NCBI GenBank assembly: GCA_963743305.1
Contig: CAVUPH010000037.1
Coordinates: 15,177-79,176 of the forward strand
Source: an uncultured delta proteobacterium
Lineage (GTDB): Bacteria; Desulfobacterota; RBG-13-43-22
DNA: 64,000 bases
Reading direction: 5' to 3'
A program made the position numbers and the translations under genes. Positions within the stretch are counted from its first letter, which is position 1, and every line of letters starts with the position of its first letter. Below are positions 38,225-46,708 of this stretch, one piece after another. The notes below the pieces were generated by a model. That model was not told the DNA's origin and made no database searches. It was given only the letters and a program-made list of their open reading frames with translations.

Positions 38225-39648
38225 TTAATGGCCCAATTGTGGTCTGTTGGTATCCTTCAAGAGTTCTTCCGGCGTCTTCAAAACAGAAAAAATTGCAAAA
38301 AGCAGAACGGGAAAGAGTTGCAGGAAGAGGCGGTCCAGTGTGGTATCCAGATAAAAGGTCAGATTTTGGGGGAAAAGGAGGAAGACCAGAAAAAAAACGG
38401 CGGTTTGCAGCGAGATCAAAATAAAGGGGAAAAGGTCCTTTTTTAAAGCTTGATCAGAAAGGCGCGCGAAGAAAGCGTATAGAATCAAAACCGGCAGTAG
38501 GGGAAAGGTCCATTGCCCAAAAAACAAAGCACTTTTGAAAAACCGAACCAGAATGGTCCCATATCGGCCAAGGTCGGTCAGATGGGCCGCCAATGGTTCC
38601 GGCCGGTTTAAGGCATAAAAACTATTGGCCGGGGCTAAAAGGAGTTTATGGTAAAGGATCAACACCAGGACTGGCGCCAACCCGATGAGGAAGAATAAAC
38701 AGGGTTTCCAGTGGATGCTTCCAGCGATGGGTTAGGGCCCCTACAAACAACAGGGAAAGAGGTATTAGGGCCGCCAAGACCTGCCCCTCGTTTTTAGTCC
38801 AGGCGGAGAAACCGATCAGTAGGCCGGCCAAAATAGAGGCGCCGTAGTTATTTGCAGGCCTGCGGTCGGATAAGGATAAAAGGGCAATTCCCGAAAGTAA
38901 GTAAAAGGCTAAAGGGATATCCGCATATTGGGAGGCCCCATGGATCAAGAAGAAAGGGGTCCCCAAAAGGAGTATCCCCGCCAGGTATCCCTGACTGCTG
39001 CTTTTTATCGGGCTTAAGGAAGAAACCAGTATCCCGGTAGTGCTGAGGGTGAATAGTAAGGCCAGAGCCGAGGGTACCCAAGGCGTTTCCTCTCCCAGGT
39101 AAAACCAGCCGCGCGCTATAGCTAAAGGCAACAGCAAGGGATAATCCGGATGAGACCAGCCCAGAAGAGGGCTAAAGCCATCCTGCCAGTTTTCGGCCCC
39201 TCTAAAAATGAAACGGGCCCGGTTATTCCAAATGGCCCAAGCATCCCAATTTCCATGGGGATACAAAATGGAGATTAGTATCAAGACCAAAGTTCCGCTG
39301 ATTAATAAAAGATAAAAACCAGAAGCGGTGATAGCGCTGAATCGAGAGGAAGACGGCTGGGAACCCCGCGGTTCAATATTTTTTGGACGCCTCTTTTTAT
39401 TGACTGCCGAGTGCATCACCAAGAATAAGCAGAGTAGTAATTCCAAGCAGTATATAGCTTTTATGAAACCGGCCAATCAGTAAAAGCCAAAGAAATAGGA
39501 GGGCGGAAGAAAACCCCCATCCCACCCCCAGGCCGAGGAAGAGGCGGAAGATTAAGGGATGTTTTTCCTCCGGACCGGAGAGCAACCGATCGACCAAGGC
39601 CGAACCCGTAAGGAAAGAAATCACTAGGGAAAAAAAGAAGGCCATCAA
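38225..39648 (-). CDS. Polytopic membrane protein, GT-C/PMT-like glycosyltransferase (split by two frameshifts)
   Basis: Fragments 39397-39648, 38646-39476 and 38225-38680 are all hydrophobic; WDAWAIW, HPDYPLLLP, YADIPL, WTKNEG motifs. Confidence 0.65.
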
Positions 39649-40049
39649 CGAGGGGCACGTTCCAGGAGTATCAGGCCGTTTTCAAAAACCCGGACGACTT
39701 GCATTCTATGTTGCGTTGCTATTTTTTCAAGGTTGGAAGGATCATAAAAGATCCCGATGGCCGGGGAAATCGCGGGATCTCTGGAGATCAAGAGGGGAGA
39801 GAGGGCGTACTGGGTTTGATAAAAATCAGCCACTTCCTTACGGTCGGAGACAAAACCGATTGTTCCGCGGGCGGGCAGATACGGTTTTAGCTTTCTCAGT
39901 TGATTCTCCCGAACGGATACCGGGTCGGTAAAGGCAGAAAAGCCTTCCCGGGGGAATAGTTTCTTTATCAGTTGAACCTGCGAGGATAACCCCAGGCCAA
40001 CCCAAAAGACCAAAAAAGCGGTCCACAACCAGAATTTTATCTTCACCAA
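39645..40049 (-). CDS. Hypothetical membrane-anchored protein
   Basis: 134 aa ORF with an N-terminal TM helix; stop overlaps the start of the GT-C gene. Confidence 0.7.
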   Translation of the reverse strand: MVKIKFWLWTAFLVFWVGLGLSSQVQLIKKLFPREGFSAFTDPVSVRENQLRKLKPYLPARGTIGFVSDRKEVADFYQTQYALSPLLISRDPAISPAIGIFYDPSNLEKIATQHRMQVVRVFENGLILLERAPR

Positions 40050-40212: not shown

Positions 40213-40690
40213 CTATTTTCCGGCGTAAATCTTTTTCATCTCCAATTTTATTCGGTCAATGGGAACGCCCAGATCGTTGAGTAAAAAAGCGTGCATTGTT
40301 TGTGCATCGCAGACGTTGCAGTTGGCCGCATGGTCATCAAATTTACCAAGGGTCCCCTTTTTGAGAAAGCAATAAGAAAGGTTTTTGTGACCCATCTCTT
40401 CGCAAAAACAGTAGCAGTGAAAATTGGGCCAATAAACGTGTTTCCTTGACCGCGATCTTGTAAGACACCAGAACAGAATCATTGATGTAGACGAATTTTG
40501 GAAAATTATAGCTTTTCCAAGTTTCTCCGGGATATTTTTTGGCTACCAGGGGCATTGCCCTGGCTGTGAGTTCCTGGAGATTCATTTTGGCCAGGGCCTG
40601 TATTTCTTTTTCCTGATTGGATGACCAGACGAGATTATTCATAAAAAAAACCAGCAGCGCAACCAAGATGCTTTTCGCGAAAATTTTCAT
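40213..40690 (-). CDS. Exported PCYCGC-family-like metal-binding protein (variant HCYCFC); frameshift near 40422
   Basis: Removing one T joins LLAQF to HCYCFCEEMGHKNLSYCF...DHAANCNVC; N-terminal signal peptide. Confidence 0.75.
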
Positions 40691-40715: not shown

Positions 40716-41756
40716 TTACCAAGGAAACTTAAAAAGCCAATTTTTCACCCGGAACCAATGACCGACAACGATAGCCGCCGTTTGACTCAAAATAATAAAA
40801 GCGAAAACCAGGTTAAGGATCAGCCTTTCCTTAACAAACCATTTGCCGCCCGGTAGTATTGAGCGATCGAGTACCGGGCAGAGGACTAAGAACAGGCCGA
40901 TAAATAAAGGCACCACAATGCCGCCGACCAAGGCCGAATGACTTACCATTTCCTGGATACCCACCAGATACCAGGGTGCTTTGGCCGGGTTGGGCGGATG
41001 CAGAGGATCGGCCCTTCCCGACAGCGGAGCTTCGATGAAAAGCGCTAGGACGAGCAGAAGGGAAAGGGTCAGGAGGCCGACAGCCAATTCCGCTTTAAAG
41101 AGTATCGGCGAAGAGGCAATTTTCTCAGAATCCGGACCCTCGAAGGTAGCCAGCCCCCCGGCTTTCCGGATACGCCAAAGATGCAGCGCAACCAGGAACA
41201 CCCACAGGGAGGGCAGGAAGGCCACGTGCAGAGCAAAGGACCGGATTAGGGTATCGGGGCCTATTTCCTGACCACCCAGGAGAAACCTGCGGATGGAGGG
41301 GCCGGCGAAAGGGAAGTACGAGGCCAGATTAGAACCTACTTTGATTGCCCAAAAAGACGTCTGGTCCCAAGGAAGGAGGTACCCCGTATAATTGCTCGCC
41401 AAAGTCAGTGTCAAGAGGCCCAGCCCGTAGACCCAATTCAGATAACGCCCCTGATAGCTTCCGGTGAAATAAACCCTGGTCAGGTGCAGGAAACCCGCGA
41501 TCAACAGAACATTGGCAGCCAAGTAATGGAGGTTTCGCACCAACCCGCCATATCGCAGTGTAGTCATGATATGAATTATCCGGTCATAAGCCACCTCCTC
41601 GTAAGGAACGTAATAGAGCAGGAGTGTCACCCCGGTCAAAACAAGTAAAATAAGACAGGATAGGCAGATGACGCCCAGACCGAGGGTTGTGAGTGGTTGC
41701 AGGGTCTTCACCTGGATTAGCGGTGGATGGAGGTGTTTCAGAAAATTTATTTTCAT
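40716..41756 (-). CDS. Cytochrome b (b/b6 plus subunit IV-like region) of a Rieske/cytochrome b complex
   Basis: Four heme His (RNLH, FLH, ALHV, ALHL), TGYLLPWDQ, and APWY at the PEWY position. Confidence 0.92.
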   Translation of the reverse strand: MKINFLKHLHPPLIQVKTLQPLTTLGLGVICLSCLILLVLTGVTLLLYYVPYEEVAYDRIIHIMTTLRYGGLVRNLHYLAANVLLIAGFLHLTRVYFTGSYQGRYLNWVYGLGLLTLTLASNYTGYLLPWDQTSFWAIKVGSNLASYFPFAGPSIRRFLLGGQEIGPDTLIRSFALHVAFLPSLWVFLVALHLWRIRKAGGLATFEGPDSEKIASSPILFKAELAVGLLTLSLLLVLALFIEAPLSGRADPLHPPNPAKAPWYLVGIQEMVSHSALVGGIVVPLFIGLFLVLCPVLDRSILPGGKWFVKERLILNLVFAFIILSQTAAIVVGHWFRVKNWLFKFPW

Positions 41757-41771
41757 GCTTTACTTCAGGTC

Positions 41772-42252
41772 CTATCCCTTACGATCAGGGACTGGTTCTC
41801 TTAGCGCCAACCAGCTCGGCTTCGTCAATTTTTCTCCGATATGCACCCATAGTCTGCCACCTCGCTCCATTACTTCGTGCCAAGGAAGCGGATCAGTGGC
41901 CGGACCTGAATAGACTTGGCCCAGCGGGACCGAATTCGCTGCCATGGCAGGGACAAAAAAAACCCTGGTCGACCACATTGAGAAGACAGCCCAAATGGGT
42001 GCATTCCAAGCTGATGGCCCCGATCCTCCGGGAAGACCGGATGACGACTATCTTGTGCTCGGGGAAAGGGGTCAGTGTACCGGGTGCAAACCGGTCCAGG
42101 GAAGAAATTTGGACCCAACTACCGGAAGAAAACCGGGAGGCTGCCGTCCAGACGTTGCCGAAGATCCAGGCAAAGGCCGTTCCTACAGCCCCCAAGCCGC
42201 CAATCACCAGCCATCTGAATAGAAATTCCCGCCGGCTAACGCGTTTCGTCAT
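41772..42252 (-). CDS. Rieske 2Fe-2S protein, Tat-exported (frameshift near 41927)
   Basis: SRREFL Tat motif, CTHLGC and CPCHGS boxes; the next frame gives GQVYSGPATDPL. Confidence 0.92.
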
Positions 42253-43897
42253 CGGCTCCTCGCTCTCCGGAAAATTTTCGGACCAGACCAACCAGGCCCC
42301 AGATTGATTCCGGTCGGAGATTGTCGGCAAAGGGCCGCATGGCGGTCCCTGGAATCCCGTAAGTTATGGCGGTTGCAATTCGTTCATCGGGGAAAGACCT
42401 GAAGTAGGGAACATTGGTGAGGTCTCTCGGTCTGGGCAGATATTTCAGGTAGGCGGGTCCCTTTCCCTTCCCTTGATAACCGTGGCAGAGGGAGCATTTT
42501 TTCCTAAAGGTGGAGAGGGTCTCTTCAGAAGACGGTAAGGTCCTAGGTCTGGGCGGAGGAGTATTCATCATCTTAACCGTCCTTTCTGTTTTGATGAATA
42601 CCTGAAAGAGAAGGTCTACCAGGGAATTGATGGTTTCTTGCCCCAACAACTCCCCATAGGGCGGCATCGAGGTGCCTGGAATCCCCTTGGTTAGGCTTCC
42701 CGTGATTCTTGAATCGGGGATAGCCTTGAAAAACAACGCGTTGTGACGGAAGGCCCGGGGAAAGGTCGCCACGTTCGGCTCGATGATCCCAAACCCATCG
42801 CCCTGGGCGGCGTGGCACCGTTGGCAGAGCATCATGTACGCATTTCTGGGAGTCCCCTGGTGAAAGTGGGCCCTTTGCTTCTGTTGAAGGAGGGAAAGAA
42901 GTCCGTCTTCTTCTCCCGTGCCCATGGGGATTCTCGGCATAATGGCGCCAGGGATTTCGATTCCCGGCCGATGCAGGAAATTCCTGATATAATCCCTTGG
43001 CCTCATAAAGGCCATATAAGAAAGGTCCGGTCCAATCTGGCCGTCGGATTCCCCGAACTTGTGGCAGGCCAGACATTTCTTTTCCTTGAGCAGCTCCATT
43101 CCCATTGGGACCCGTTGGGTGAGCCCTATTCTCTCCAGCCGTTCCTGCTCCCGTTCCCTTGATAGGCGGATCATCGGCGTTTCATAGTACGGCTCTTTCA
43201 CCCGACTCTTCAGAAAATAGGAGAGGGCGTTCACTTCTTCAGGAGAAAGTCCGAATTTCGGCATGATCGAGTTCTCAAGGATTGTCCTGGGATTCCCGAT
43301 AGCCATTTTAATTTGTTTCAACCCCAGGTACGAGCCGACCTCGCTTAGATCCGGGCCATAGCTGGAACCTTTCTCCCCGCTTCTCGTGTGGCAGGTATCA
43401 CAGGCGGTTTCGGAAAACAACCGGCTCCCTTGCCAGGCTTTTTCCGCTCCCCGGAGTGGTTTCAATTCATGGCATTGGTAACAACTGGCCTGCAGGTCTT
43501 CCCCGGCCAGGACCTTTCGCGCTTCATTCCCTGTTCGGCCATGGGATATCTTGAGATCGGCAGCCATTCCTTCACCTAAATGGCAGGCCGTGCATCCCAG
43601 GTCAGACATGGAATGGGGAGCGATGTTCGGATGGTCGCGCCCGGGCAGAGAATGATCGATCCGCACGGCGGCCCTCCCCTCGGGGTGACACGTCCGGCAG
43701 TGTTCTTGTTTCGGTGTTCCGCCAAGGTTGACGGTTATGTTGGCGATGTGGTGGGAGCCAGTCCTTCCATAGCGATAGTAACGACCCGACTGCTCTTCCC
43801 ACCCCTGATAGCTCCAAAAAACGAGCAGACCCAGGGTTAGAACCAAGGCGGTCAGGAGAAAGACATCGATCAACAACGCTACACGTCTCTTTGGCAT
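42236..43897 (-). CDS. Membrane-anchored multiheme cytochrome c (7 CxxCH)
   Basis: CRTCH, CTACH, CYQCH, CDTCH, CLACH, CQRCH, CSLCH; N-terminal TM helix. Confidence 0.93.
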   Translation of the reverse strand: MPKRRVALLIDVFLLTALVLTLGLLVFWSYQGWEEQSGRYYRYGRTGSHHIANITVNLGGTPKQEHCRTCHPEGRAAVRIDHSLPGRDHPNIAPHSMSDLGCTACHLGEGMAADLKISHGRTGNEARKVLAGEDLQASCYQCHELKPLRGAEKAWQGSRLFSETACDTCHTRSGEKGSSYGPDLSEVGSYLGLKQIKMAIGNPRTILENSIMPKFGLSPEEVNALSYFLKSRVKEPYYETPMIRLSREREQERLERIGLTQRVPMGMELLKEKKCLACHKFGESDGQIGPDLSYMAFMRPRDYIRNFLHRPGIEIPGAIMPRIPMGTGEEDGLLSLLQQKQRAHFHQGTPRNAYMMLCQRCHAAQGDGFGIIEPNVATFPRAFRHNALFFKAIPDSRITGSLTKGIPGTSMPPYGELLGQETINSLVDLLFQVFIKTERTVKMMNTPPPRPRTLPSSEETLSTFRKKCSLCHGYQGKGKGPAYLKYLPRPRDLTNVPYFRSFPDERIATAITYGIPGTAMRPFADNLRPESIWGLVGLVRKFSGERGADDETR

Positions 43898-43961
43898 CTG
43901 TCTCAGTTGATCCGAGAGGGTACGCTCAATGATCGCTCAGAAACATAACCCTTCGCTCTTC

Positions 43962-44375
43962 CTATTTCCGCTCGGTCGGATAGTTTGCCTGATCCCACTC
44001 ATTCCACCCGCCTTTGAGGACGGATACCTTCTTAAATCCCCGCTTGATAAGTTCCTGTGCCACCCGGGCACTGGTCGCCTCATCTTGTCAGGCTCAGTAA
44101 AGGACAATGGTTTTTGCCTTGGAATACTTTTTGGCCCAGGATTTCACAGCGCCAGGATCTTCCCGAACCGCCCCTTTGATTTGCTTCAAACTCATTTTCC
44201 GGTCCCATAAAGTCCGGACATCAATAACCACCACCTCCGGTTTCCCCAGCATGGCTTTGAGTTCCTCTTTGCTGATTCGGGGAATCTCCGAGGAAATGGC
44301 CGTAAATACCCAGATCCCCAAGAGTATAAAGACCATTGCCATACCGGCTATTGCTTTCCTTACCATTTTTTCCAC
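43962..44375 (-). CDS. Exported rhodanese-domain selenoprotein with two selenocysteines (active site Y-U-A-U); alternative ATG at 44366
   Basis: After TIVLY: TGA(44094-44096) GCC TGA(44088-44090), then in-frame QDEATSARVAQELIKRGFKKVSVLKGGWNEWDQANYPTERK and TAG, which completes the rhodanese fold. Confidence 0.85.
44057..44071 (-). promoter_or_regulatory. Putative bacterial SECIS hairpin
   Basis: Minus strand GTGCC-CGGGT-GGCAC, starting 16 nt after the second UGA and 22 nt after the first; G at the second loop position. Confidence 0.6.
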
Positions 44376-44572
44376 ACTCCTTTCTTGATCGCATAGGGAC
44401 CCTCCGGCAACTTGAGCATTAAGTGCCTGGGTTCCTTCTAATAATATTGCTTCCTTGATCCCTTCCTTATATATTTTAAGATTATATTAGTATTAAGACA
44501 AGTCCCTAAATGGCCGGAATCCATCCTCCCCTGGTCCCTATCAAAATGCATTCTCCATTTTTTGGTATATCC

Positions 44573-45100
44573 TTAGCGTACGGGCCCAACCTTTGTTGGC
44601 TTGGCTCTTTTTTTCCGCTTGGGAGGGAGGCTCACTTCCTGCGATAAAATAAGACGCGGGAGAGTTCCATCGACGCCCAGAATCGAAACCAAACGTTTGA
44701 GTCCTCTATTAATTTCTTTCAGGCCGCTTAGCGGTGTTTTCTCCAACCCAACTACCAGTAAGCCTTGGGCCACTTCCGGAGCGGCTGCGACCAGATCTTT
44801 TCCTTTGGGGGTCAATTCTACCCAGACAATTCGGCGGTCTTCCTTGGACCGGGTCTTTTCTATCAGACCATGAGACTCGAGCCGGGTGAGGATTCCGACT
44901 ACGGTTGCCGGGTGAAGGTACATCCGGCGGGCTAATTCGGAAACCATCACCGGAGCGGCTTCGGCCAGGACCTTAATGGCCCAGAGCTGGGGACTGGTAA
45001 GACCGGTAGTATGCTCGACCTTTTTGGAATATTCATGAATGACCTGAAAGACTCTTCTTAAATTATCAATGGTATCAGCTATTAATTTTGATTGGTCCAT
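44573..45100 (-). CDS. MarR family transcriptional regulator
   Basis: GLTSPQLWAI, ELARRMYLHPATVVGILTRLE, EDRR...LTPKG. Confidence 0.92.
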   Translation of the reverse strand: MDQSKLIADTIDNLRRVFQVIHEYSKKVEHTTGLTSPQLWAIKVLAEAAPVMVSELARRMYLHPATVVGILTRLESHGLIEKTRSKEDRRIVWVELTPKGKDLVAAAPEVAQGLLVVGLEKTPLSGLKEINRGLKRLVSILGVDGTLPRLILSQEVSLPPKRKKRAKPTKVGPVR

Positions 45101-45316: not shown

Positions 45317-46708
45317 ATGACATTAGATATTAAAAGAAATCACGACCGGATTAAGATAAAAATAACCGAAGAATCGGTTATTTTTATCAGTATATTGAAA
45401 TGGTTTATCCTGTCCACGGCCATCGGGGCGATCGTTGGTCTTGCCACCGCCTTCTTTTTAAAGGTCTTGGAATGGACAACCATTTGGACCCATACCTTGC
45501 CTTATTATTTTCTTTTCCTGCCGATCGCCTTTTTTTTAAGTGCCTTAATGATTAAATATCTGGCTCCGGGGGCCGAGGGGCACGGGACCGAAAAGGTTAT
45601 CGAAGCCGTTCATAAACAATCCGGAAGAATTAAACCGATGGTCGTTCCCATAAAACTGTTGGCCACGGTCATCACCATAGCCTTCGGGGGATCGGCTGGA
45701 AAAGAAGGCCCTTGTGCGCAGATAGGCGCGGGCCTGGCCTCTATCTTTGCCTCTCTGTTTCGTTTTGATGATTTTGACCGGAAAAAGCTGGTCATCTGCG
45801 GGATCAGCGCCGGTTTCGCCAGTGTCTTCGGGACCCCTATAGCTGGGGCCATTTTCGGGGTTGAGGTACTTATGGTAGGTAGTGTCCTTTATGAAGTTCT
45901 CTTCCCTTGTTTTATAGCCGGCGTCACCTCATATCAGGTTTCATCGGCCATCGGGATTACCTACTATTATCATCCCATGCATTTGATCTCGGTTTTTAAG
46001 GAATTATTTTTCATCAAGGTTGCCTTGGCCGGTATTTTTTTCGGGATCGTTTCCTTTCTTTTAGTTGAATTACTGAAGTTGGGTAAAAAAATGGCGGATC
46101 GCCTGCCGATCTGGCCTCCTCTTAAGGGGATAATTGGGGGTCTTCTTTTGGTCGGTCTGACCTTGGCAATTTCAGACCACTATTTGGGGCTGGGATTGTC
46201 CACCATTGAGGCCTCCCTTCAAGGCCTCAAGATGGTCTGGTCTGCCTTCCTCTTGAAAATTATTTTTACCAGTTTAACCCTTAATTTTGGAGGTAGCGGA
46301 GGAATCGTTACTCCCATCTTTTTCATTGGGGTGACCTCCGGAAGTTTTTTTGCCCAAATCTGGGGCTTGGATATAGCCACTTTTTCAGCCATCGGGATGG
46401 TGGCTCTGTTAGCCGGGGCGGCCAATACACCTATCGCCGCCAGCATCATGGCCGTGGAACTTTTTGGTCCCCAAATCGCCCCCTATGCGTCCGTGGCCTG
46501 CGTCATCAGCTACCTGATGACCGGACACCGCAGCGTTTATCCCTCTCAAATTTTGTCGGTTACCAAATCACCTTCTTTTGAGTTAGAGATCGGCGACGAT
46601 ATAGATAGCACCCATGTCCACTATAAACCAAGAAAGAAAAGCCTGATCGGGGCTTGTCTGCTGGTCTTTGAATCCCTAAAAAGCGGCATAAAGCGGAAAA
46701 AGCGATAG
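45317..46708 (+). CDS. CLC family chloride/anion channel-transporter
   Basis: GGSAGKEGPCAQIG, FGTPIAGAIF, GGIVTPIF, AANTPIAA. Confidence 0.92.
   Translation: MTLDIKRNHDRIKIKITEESVIFISILKWFILSTAIGAIVGLATAFFLKVLEWTTIWTHTLPYYFLFLPIAFFLSALMIKYLAPGAEGHGTEKVIEAVHKQSGRIKPMVVPIKLLATVITIAFGGSAGKEGPCAQIGAGLASIFASLFRFDDFDRKKLVICGISAGFASVFGTPIAGAIFGVEVLMVGSVLYEVLFPCFIAGVTSYQVSSAIGITYYYHPMHLISVFKELFFIKVALAGIFFGIVSFLLVELLKLGKKMADRLPIWPPLKGIIGGLLLVGLTLAISDHYLGLGLSTIEASLQGLKMVWSAFLLKIIFTSLTLNFGGSGGIVTPIFFIGVTSGSFFAQIWGLDIATFSAIGMVALLAGAANTPIAASIMAVELFGPQIAPYASVACVISYLMTGHRSVYPSQILSVTKSPSFELEIGDDIDSTHVHYKPRKKSLIGACLLVFESLKSGIKRKKR

Follow-up and report, generated by a model that had tools for sequence, protein, structure and literature searches.

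The locus considered here raises the question of whether two UGA codons, standing two positions apart in the active-site region of one rhodanese gene, are both translated, as which residue, and by means of which signal. The gene occupies positions 43962..44366 on the minus strand of the window, by which we mean the whole 64,000-nucleotide (nt) stretch of DNA that was analysed, taken from contig CAVUPH010000037.1 of an uncultured delta proteobacterium (Desulfobacterota). We consider it highly probable, on the sequence evidence set out below, that the gene is a double-selenocysteine (Sec) member of the rhodanese family NF041203 whose two UGAs are decoded through a single hairpin, and we infer that the residue inserted at both codons is Sec. 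The preliminary description of this DNA had proposed as much, and its proposal is supported by three lines of evidence that together argue that both TGAs are translated: the same two-Sec motif (U-x-U, with U for Sec) recurs in related genes, in some of them a cytochrome domain is fused downstream of it, and the part of the gene that follows the TGAs bears the marks of purifying selection.

The gene, its family and its relatives

Read on the minus strand from 44366 to 43962, the gene forms a frame of 134 codons followed by a TAG stop, and its sole interruptions are two in-frame TGA codons, TGA1 at codon 91 (44094..44096) and TGA2 at codon 93 (44088..44090), in the context TAC TGA GCC TGA CAA GAT GAG GCG ACC AGT GCC CGG GTG GCA C. 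When TGA is translated as Sec, the active-site motif becomes Y-U-A-U and a further 41 codons stay open 3' of the TGAs up to the TAG, the coding sequence (CDS) ending at 43962. The ATG at 44366 is a likelier start than the GTG at 44375 listed by the open reading frame finder, because a GGAG lies 10 nt upstream of it, at 44380-44377, and the orthologues begin at the same methionine. The read-through product matches the Pfam Rhodanese domain (PF00581; 43989..44270, minus strand, residues 36-129 of the 137-amino-acid (aa) reading) with 57 bits against a gathering threshold of 22.2 (E 2.8e-15), and this match, whose C-terminal third is encoded 3' of the TGAs, is complete only with both of them read; since it then spans profile positions 2-101 of 102, the frame appears to be more than a chance opening. 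The preliminary description, which had claimed two in-frame UGAs in a Y-U-A-U motif, 41 further open codons and a completed rhodanese fold, is borne out on each of these points, as is its reading of the N-terminus as signal- or anchor-like. The putative signal peptide or signal anchor (44289..44366, minus strand) consists of a basic MVRK followed by about 20 hydrophobic residues, and the N-termini of homologues are likewise short and hydrophobic, with small residues right before a conserved PR(I/M)(S/T)KEELK.

Against the NCBIfam model NF041203 (rhodanese_LYCAU, rhodanese-related (seleno)protein) the product scores 168.7 bits, with a cut-off of 115, over profile positions 4-126 of 126. It resembles this family, which two reviews list as a C-x-U rhodanese form (PMC9312934, PMC13188914), in size, in its N-terminal hydrophobic leader, in the Sec at +2 and in the hairpin. 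The difference lies in the L-Y-C-A-U motif: the UGA at +2 (44090-44088) stands where the family usually has its Sec, whereas the conserved Cys position is itself UGA, a deviation common to 15 other homologues.

How widespread this deviation is was assessed by a search of the read-through protein against 401 genomes of the phylum (E <= 1e-12), which returned 136 matches from 93 genomes. One TGA falls inside the match in 103 of the 136, two TGAs in 16, a TGA plus a TAA in five and no stop in 12. All 16 two-TGA matches read Y-U-x-U at the same place, and they come from 16 genomes and 10 family codes. Tabulating the residues at the two sites, as the preliminary description had suggested, over 64 distinct family rows gave 44 C-x-U, 16 U-x-U and 4 C-x-C, that is, C in 48 and U in 16 at the first site and U in 60 and C in 4 at the second, with no U-x-C form among the 64. 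The U-x-U motif, which had been described as rare, is thus real, but at 16 of 136 homologues, which is its fair frequency, it is not very rare in the family, nor is it new, having been reported in 2007 (PMC1976440). Sequencing errors or decay of the gene copy probably account for two of the matches with an extra TAA inside the rhodanese domain, L044 (genome G002, of the same genus) and L066 (G222).

Evidence for read-through outside the window comes from five genes (L075, L076, L077, L079 and L080, the last at the same place as L059) in which the reading frame of the U-x-U rhodanese runs on into a multihaem cytochrome domain (PF13447, HAO family related) that is about 400 aa long and has eight CxxCH motifs. 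In these fusions read-through would be obligatory, because the cytochrome domain is made only if both UGAs are read. Four of the five fusion genes form one clade with a support of 100* (the star marks well-supported branches), and the U-x-U state of these genes is therefore inherited. The fused domain also gives a weak hydrazine-dehydrogenase-like match (69 bits against a cut-off of 900); the fusion frames reach the edge of the fetched loci, with the rhodanese motif at about nt 1710-1830 in L075, L076, L077 and L079. A non-exhaustive literature search found no paper on rhodanese-octahaem fusions. Domains of the c-type cytochrome kind are matured in the periplasm, and these fusions, together with the basic-hydrophobic N-terminus, which is long enough for a signal anchor, lead us to infer that the rhodanese is exported to the periplasm.

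Nearer to the window gene, the metagenome contig L093 encodes a protein of 84% aa identity with an identical YUAUQDE, hence with a TGA at the first site as well. Over the 41 codons after the UGAs the two genes differ by 9 synonymous and 3 non-synonymous changes, and the ratio of non-synonymous to synonymous substitution rates (dN/dS) is 0.07, compared with 0.27 over the 90 codons before the UGAs; by this pattern the part 3' of the UGAs is under purifying selection. A DNA tree from which the motif codons were excluded places the two genes as sisters (99/97*). Among orthologues taken from genomes, the closest are of the C-x-U form and carry TGC or TGT at the first site.

Protein databases preserve the same distinction in the form of truncations. 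Among the 120 best matches in a protein-collection comparison, 28 end exactly before site 1 and 73 end after Y-C-x, while 4 are called W-x-W, 5 C-x-W, 2 C-x-C, 3 C-x-S, 1 C-x-Q and 1 C-x-L, with 3 others. Taking the U-x-U state of truncated proteins from their end point and not from their DNA, 22 of the 23 top-ranked proteins are of the U-x-U type, with identities of 77-100%, and the first form truncated at site 2 is P0022, at rank 22 and 71% identity. On a tree of the database proteins this label is strongly clustered, requiring 9 changes against a shuffled mean of 28. Every one of the nearest relatives in the database, to an identity as low as 77%, either ends at site 1 or is called W-x-W, and the U-x-U state is therefore inherited in the lineage of the window gene. 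Among these 22 is the window's own product, on record as P0002, a 90-aa fragment ending TIVLY, which confirms the earlier expectation that standard pipelines would truncate the gene.

On the tree of the 64 rows, many of whose forks are unresolved and whose sample is enriched for two-TGA matches, the U-x-U state needs 12 changes by parsimony, or at least 4 if only the starred branches are trusted, and repeated switching between Cys and Sec in NF041203-type rhodaneses is likely. A locus with adjoining C-x-U and U-x-U genes that are each other's closest relatives on the tree (L074, G335:C6:400-3300; 97*) has the appearance of a tandem duplication with a later switch between Cys and Sec.

The hairpin and the proposed decoding of the two UGAs

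A hairpin resembling a selenocysteine insertion sequence (SECIS) lies at 44054..44074 on the minus strand, as judged from folding and from the alignment described below. Its core is a stem of five base pairs (bp) (44071-44067 with 44061-44057) closed by the loop CGGGU (44066-44062), with two weaker outer pairs that are poorly conserved. TGA2 precedes the start of the core, GUGCC-CGGGU-GGCAC, by 16 nt and TGA1 precedes it by 22 nt, in agreement with the distances first given for it. In an alignment (A1) of 60 Sec-containing members, which needs no gaps over the 63 nt that start at the first C/U codon, 42 members have U-A and 16 have C-G at pair 27-39, and at pair 30-36 there are 56 members with C-G and four with U-A; both compensatory switches fall at synonymous third positions, and the loop residue G32 is invariant. 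The observed covariation score was reached by none of 500 shuffles, and slid controls scored far lower. The five core pairs are complete in every one of the 17 U-x-U rows, which represent 16 distinct places, and in 42 of the 44 C-x-U rows; none of the four C-x-C rows has them all, the number formed there being 2 to 4. The 5-bp stem, the 5-nt loop, the invariant G and the two covarying pairs agree with the general description of the bacterial SECIS as a stem-loop 3' of the UGA with a G in its small apical loop (PMC1088965).

No second hairpin was found in these genes, nor any difference in length between C-x-U and U-x-U genes, and UGA1, if it is decoded by SelB, would therefore use the same element as UGA2. 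This is what the preliminary description had supposed in speaking of one shared SECIS, and the single conserved, covarying hairpin is the only candidate. The sequence conservation of this arrangement suggests that both distances are workable for SelB. The model of the bacterial SECIS allows a window of 16-37 nt between the UGA and the loop, and the spacing in E. coli is 11 nt.

The presence of the machinery for decoding was examined in the MAG (metagenome-assembled genome) to which the window belongs, which comprises 43 contigs and is 90% complete with 5.7% contamination. It contains tRNA-Sec (selC), selB (363 bits) and a Sec-type selD (C26:75850-76774, minus strand) with the motif G-U-A-S-K. 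This selD has a hairpin of its own, with a 5-bp stem and the loop CGGGC, starting 11 nt after its UGA; it is divided between two reading frames near its middle, a split that may come from a true frameshift or from an erroneous indel in the assembly.

Several results weigh against the reading of the gene as a double selenoprotein. Although the search for the selABCD genes that had been proposed as a check succeeded for selB, tRNA-Sec and selD, selA was not found in the 90%-complete assembly with TIGR00474, with PF03841 or by tblastn with the SelA of a relative; selA is present in 12 of 12 relatives searched, and its absence most likely reflects an assembly gap. The hairpin of the window gene starts 22 nt after UGA1, compared with 11 nt for selD of the same genome, and a Rfam scan of 43900-44400 with E up to 10 gave two chance snoRNA-like matches and no SECIS family. 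Taken alone, the 71-nt stretch folds only modestly better than chance (z -1.89, with 8 of 200 shuffles folding equally well), so that the support for the hairpin comes from the covariation across homologues. As to recurrence, a single clade was not rejected for the three U-x-U genes of the closest orthologue group (p-AU 0.25), and the 64-row sample holds all two-TGA matches and only the best 30 of the others, which biases its proportions.

The 22-nt spacing is also what would be expected to count if UGA1 were a real stop or a poorly read codon, the gene then being a recent pseudogene, or a source mostly of the 90-aa fragment, that arose by a TGY-to-TGA nonsense change in a C-x-U ancestor. The closest genome-derived orthologues, whose TGC or TGT is one nucleotide away from TGA, would suit such an origin, as would the decayed look of some family members, such as L044 and L066 with their TAA. 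A recent loss is, however, at odds with the YUAUQDE of the 84%-identical L093 and the dN/dS of 0.07 after the UGAs, with the nearest database relatives down to 77% identity that have the site-1 end or W-x-W in common with the window gene, with the five of five hairpin pairs in every U-x-U row, and with fusions that need read-through to make their 400-aa cytochrome domain, and we regard this explanation as improbable. That the first TGA is an error of sequencing or assembly is hardly credible: the MAG is in 43 contigs and carries contamination, and the selD frameshift may itself be an indel error, but a 174-nt contig from run X1, which may be the source sample, is identical over 44020-44193, across both TGAs; contigs from X2 and X9, 93-97% identical, span both sites, and none of their listed differences falls at 44088-44096, the positions at which the preliminary description had wanted the reads inspected. 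The same state is moreover common to L093 and to many database proteins from ENA, JGI, Logan and NCBI. None of the sequencing runs contains more than 0.12 of the words sampled from the stretch, and no RNA run was among the runs matching these words.

There is likewise very little to recommend the idea that a standard amino acid is placed at one UGA or at both, whether by near-cognate insertion of Trp or Cys or under a reassigned code. The identity of the inserted residue is not readable from DNA, and some gene callers did give W-x-W or C-x-W products for homologues; TGA, however, ends 23 of the 52 long frames of the window, from which we take the genetic code to be the standard one, with a reassigned code ruled out, and in several homologues it also terminates the rhodanese gene itself. 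The UGAs align with Cys, a covarying hairpin lies 3' of them, and tRNA-Sec, selB and selD are present in the genome, all of which speaks for Sec. We therefore return to the double-Sec member of NF041203 as the favoured explanation. On this account a periplasmic single-domain rhodanese of the family would have had the Cys codon two positions before its Sec codon turned into UGA as well, by one nucleotide change. SelB and tRNA-Sec would decode both UGAs through the single 5-bp hairpin with its G-containing pentaloop, which already served the second UGA, the one six nt further upstream being still within reach of the same SECIS.

The active site and the neighbouring genes

Which of the two positions corresponds to the canonical catalytic Cys of rhodaneses is not settled by the sequence alignments, which leave both as candidates. 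The preliminary description had placed the catalytic Cys at the first position, and in favour of this placement every homologue has C or U at the first position, an invariant column of the alignment, whereas at the second a few homologues without Sec, which keep the first Cys, have S, Q or L; for this reason the first position is favoured as the canonical nucleophile. The length of the loop, on the other hand, makes the second position fit the canonical C-X4-R-S spacing better, and alignments to PDB structures conflict, 6mxv being offset by one residue while YnjE puts the first position on its catalytic Cys. The same columns bear on the suggestion that homologues with residues other than Cys at these positions would speak against Sec: there are none at the first position and a few, all without Sec, at the second, which by this comparison is not strictly a Cys/Sec site. 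Among the database proteins, P0076, P0077, P0079, P0086 and P0089 are those in which Ser, Gln or Leu replaces Cys at the usual Sec position. The active-site loop is acidic: it contains an invariant Glu and lacks an Arg at the canonical loop position.

The same genome encodes two C-x-U paralogues of the NF041203 type, at C6:223715-224092 (motif FYCAUP) and at C15:7747-8064 (LYCSUP). The latter rhodanese lies behind the membrane domain of a membrane protein of about 325 aa and forms its C-terminal domain, and the relatives of this membrane-fused form alternate between C-x-U and C-x-C.

Downstream of the window gene, and on the same strand, lies a set of genes for electron-transfer proteins. The gene for a c-type cytochrome of 553 aa, which has 7 CxxCH motifs and an N-terminal membrane anchor (42236..43897, minus; Pfam Cytochrome_CBB3 and Cytochrom_C; TIGR04485 SoxX, 71.1 bits against a cut-off of 61), starts 64 nt downstream of the rhodanese gene, and no terminator-like site was found between the two. 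It is followed by genes for a Rieske [2Fe-2S] protein (41893..42330, minus; Pfam PF00355) and for a cytochrome b (40716..41756, minus; Pfam Cytochrome_B) that looks like a fusion of an ExtP-like part (residues 4-202) and an ExtQ-like part (residues 213-345), ExtP and ExtQ being encoded separately in Geobacter. Two further open frames downstream of the cytochrome b gene, at 40343-40690 and 39645-40049 (minus; 115 and 134 aa), have no Pfam or NCBIfam match. Directly upstream of the rhodanese gene is a gene for a MarR-family regulator (44573..45100, minus; Pfam MarR), with synteny in L022, L023, L025, L040, L041 and L082-L084, and the AT-rich spacer between the two holds a promoter-like site (44473..44501, minus) that matches the consensus at 9 of 12 positions in a scan; it is weak, the number of such sites in the region being at chance level. 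Divergent from the MarR gene and upstream of it lies a gene for a ClC-type chloride channel (45317-46708, plus), in a neighbourhood conserved in L082 and L084.

The order cytochrome c, Rieske protein, cytochrome b behind the rhodanese gene is kept in L082 and L084, which are C-x-U, and in L085, which is U-x-U, and the cytochrome c gene also follows the rhodanese gene in the shorter locus L025; the MarR gene is present in L082, L084 and L025 and not in L085. The conservation of this operon suggests a periplasmic redox chemistry of sulfur or other chalcogens. More specifically, we consider it a reasonable if tentative possibility, resting on analogy, that the rhodanese uses its Sec pair in the periplasm to take up sulfane sulfur or a related chalcogen substrate, for exchange with the partner cytochrome. 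In this scheme a sulfane-sulfur substrate of the polysulfide type, or a selenium substrate, would be bound or activated by the two Sec residues as a Se-S or Se-Se adduct and then exchanged with the neighbouring c-type cytochrome, which the Rieske protein and cytochrome b of the operon would wire to the quinone pool. The wider proposal is doubtful when taken as a whole, namely that C-x-U and U-x-U rhodaneses are the substrate subunit of an undescribed periplasmic respiratory module of the Desulfobacterota and also that one SECIS routinely serves two UGAs. Under that proposal the substrate, sulfane sulfur or another chalcogen, would be taken up by a rhodanese in the selenolate or diselenide form and handed on to a multihaem cytochrome, which would be either a neighbour wired to the quinone pool through the Rieske protein and cytochrome b or a fused partner in a rhodanese-octahaem selenoenzyme. 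The association with cytochromes is limited to the orthologue group of the window gene and to the fused forms. A family-wide link to multihaem cytochromes was considered and rejected, a gene with at least two CxxCH motifs being present in the fetched flanks of 18 of 83 rows, some of which are duplicates.

It is unlikely, although several observations lean that way, that the protein handles selenium or a metal and not sulfur, whether in the reduction or delivery of selenite or tellurite or in metal binding by the C/U-x-U-P-x-E motif. The acidic loop with its invariant Glu and without the canonical Arg would be compatible with such a role, as would the weak score of 40 bits (cut-off 120) for ChrE, a rhodanese of chromate resistance, and the fact that the nearest NCBIfam models of the cytochrome b are named after a selenite/tellurite reduction operon. 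The comparison with the ext cluster of Geobacter cuts both ways: its selenoprotein MccSep also supports selenite-dependent oxidation of methyl viologen, but it was shown to be a polysulfide reductase needed for sulfur respiration (PMC13510729), and the cytochrome next to the window gene carries a SoxX-like domain.

Relation to known systems and significance

The U-x-U kind of rhodanese was already known. Zhang and Gladyshev (2007) reported a U-x-U form of the rhodanese-related sulfurtransferase from the metagenome of the Olavius algarvensis symbionts (PMC1976440), and among the papers searched the term "UxU motif" occurs in two, of which this one alone concerns bacteria. The window gene agrees with that form in family name, deltaproteobacterial setting and motif, with a second Sec two residues from the first in the rhodanese active-site region (Y-U-A-U), the form being described there as having arisen by the evolution of a second Sec; that the two belong to one subfamily is suggested by name and motif alone. 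Where the 2007 account presents one new protein form, the state is found here in 16 of 401 genomes, is inherited in several clades and is in part fused to a cytochrome. The table of a 2026 review gives the family one Sec and the motif CxU, and the term "UxU" is absent from that paper.

Other comparisons are looser. In Geobacter sulfurreducens the cluster extHIJKLMNOPQS encodes c-type cytochromes and a cytochrome b alongside a Rieske protein, a rhodanese-like protein and the selenoprotein MccSep (ExtKL) (PMC5877670), the last of which is described as a polysulfide reductase essential for sulfur respiration (PMC13510729). The window thus has the same periplasm-facing set of a rhodanese-like protein, cytochromes, a Rieske protein, a cytochrome b and a selenoprotein, but its module remains below the cut-offs of the ext models (ExtP 213 bits against 290, ExtQ 72.6 against 150, ExtS 34.2 against 100), a further point against too close an equation, and by these scores the Rieske-cytochrome b module is a relative of the Geobacter Ext module and not a member of it. 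ExtH is moreover a 49-kDa protein, compared with about 14 kDa for the window rhodanese, and the selenoprotein of the ext cluster is the cytochrome, whereas that of the window is the rhodanese; no porin (ExtI) or MccSep gene was found among the operon genes scanned, the rest of the genome not having been searched.

Sud of Wolinella succinogenes is a periplasmic single-domain rhodanese-like carrier of polysulfide sulfur, thought to hand sulfane sulfur to a respiratory reductase. It is, like the window product, a small periplasmic protein of the rhodanese fold, and the sequence of its structure entry, PDB 1qxn, which carries the name "sulfide dehydrogenase", matches weakly (E 0.0083); the similarity is marginal, and Sud differs in having a Cys active site without Sec and another loop. 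TsoB (NF045694, motif UxxxxU), entered in the review table as a rhodanese/DsbD fusion-like double selenoprotein, is also a bacterial selenoprotein with a rhodanese domain and two Sec residues, but it differs in motif and architecture, and the window protein scores 28.8 bits against its cut-off of 805.

What is new here is accordingly the frequency of the U-x-U state, its inheritance in clades, the covariation in favour of one shared hairpin, the cytochrome fusions and the conserved operon with a Rieske protein and a cytochrome b. For annotation the consequence is that gene calls in this family systematically end early, at the first or the second UGA, with 101 of the best 120 database homologues truncated, and the U-x-U form is missing from the 2026 catalogue of prokaryotic selenoproteins despite the notice of 2007. 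If both UGAs are indeed served by one hairpin, 16 and 22 nt downstream of them, the working distance of SelB would be wider than the classical 11 nt. The family could be used to test whether one SECIS decodes two closely spaced UGAs. Its natural series of C-x-C, C-x-U and U-x-U forms at one active site could, in the same way, test the benefit of a second selenium. The operon and the cytochrome fusions, finally, point to a periplasmic respiration of sulfur or selenium, a topic that the work on MccSep has recently opened.

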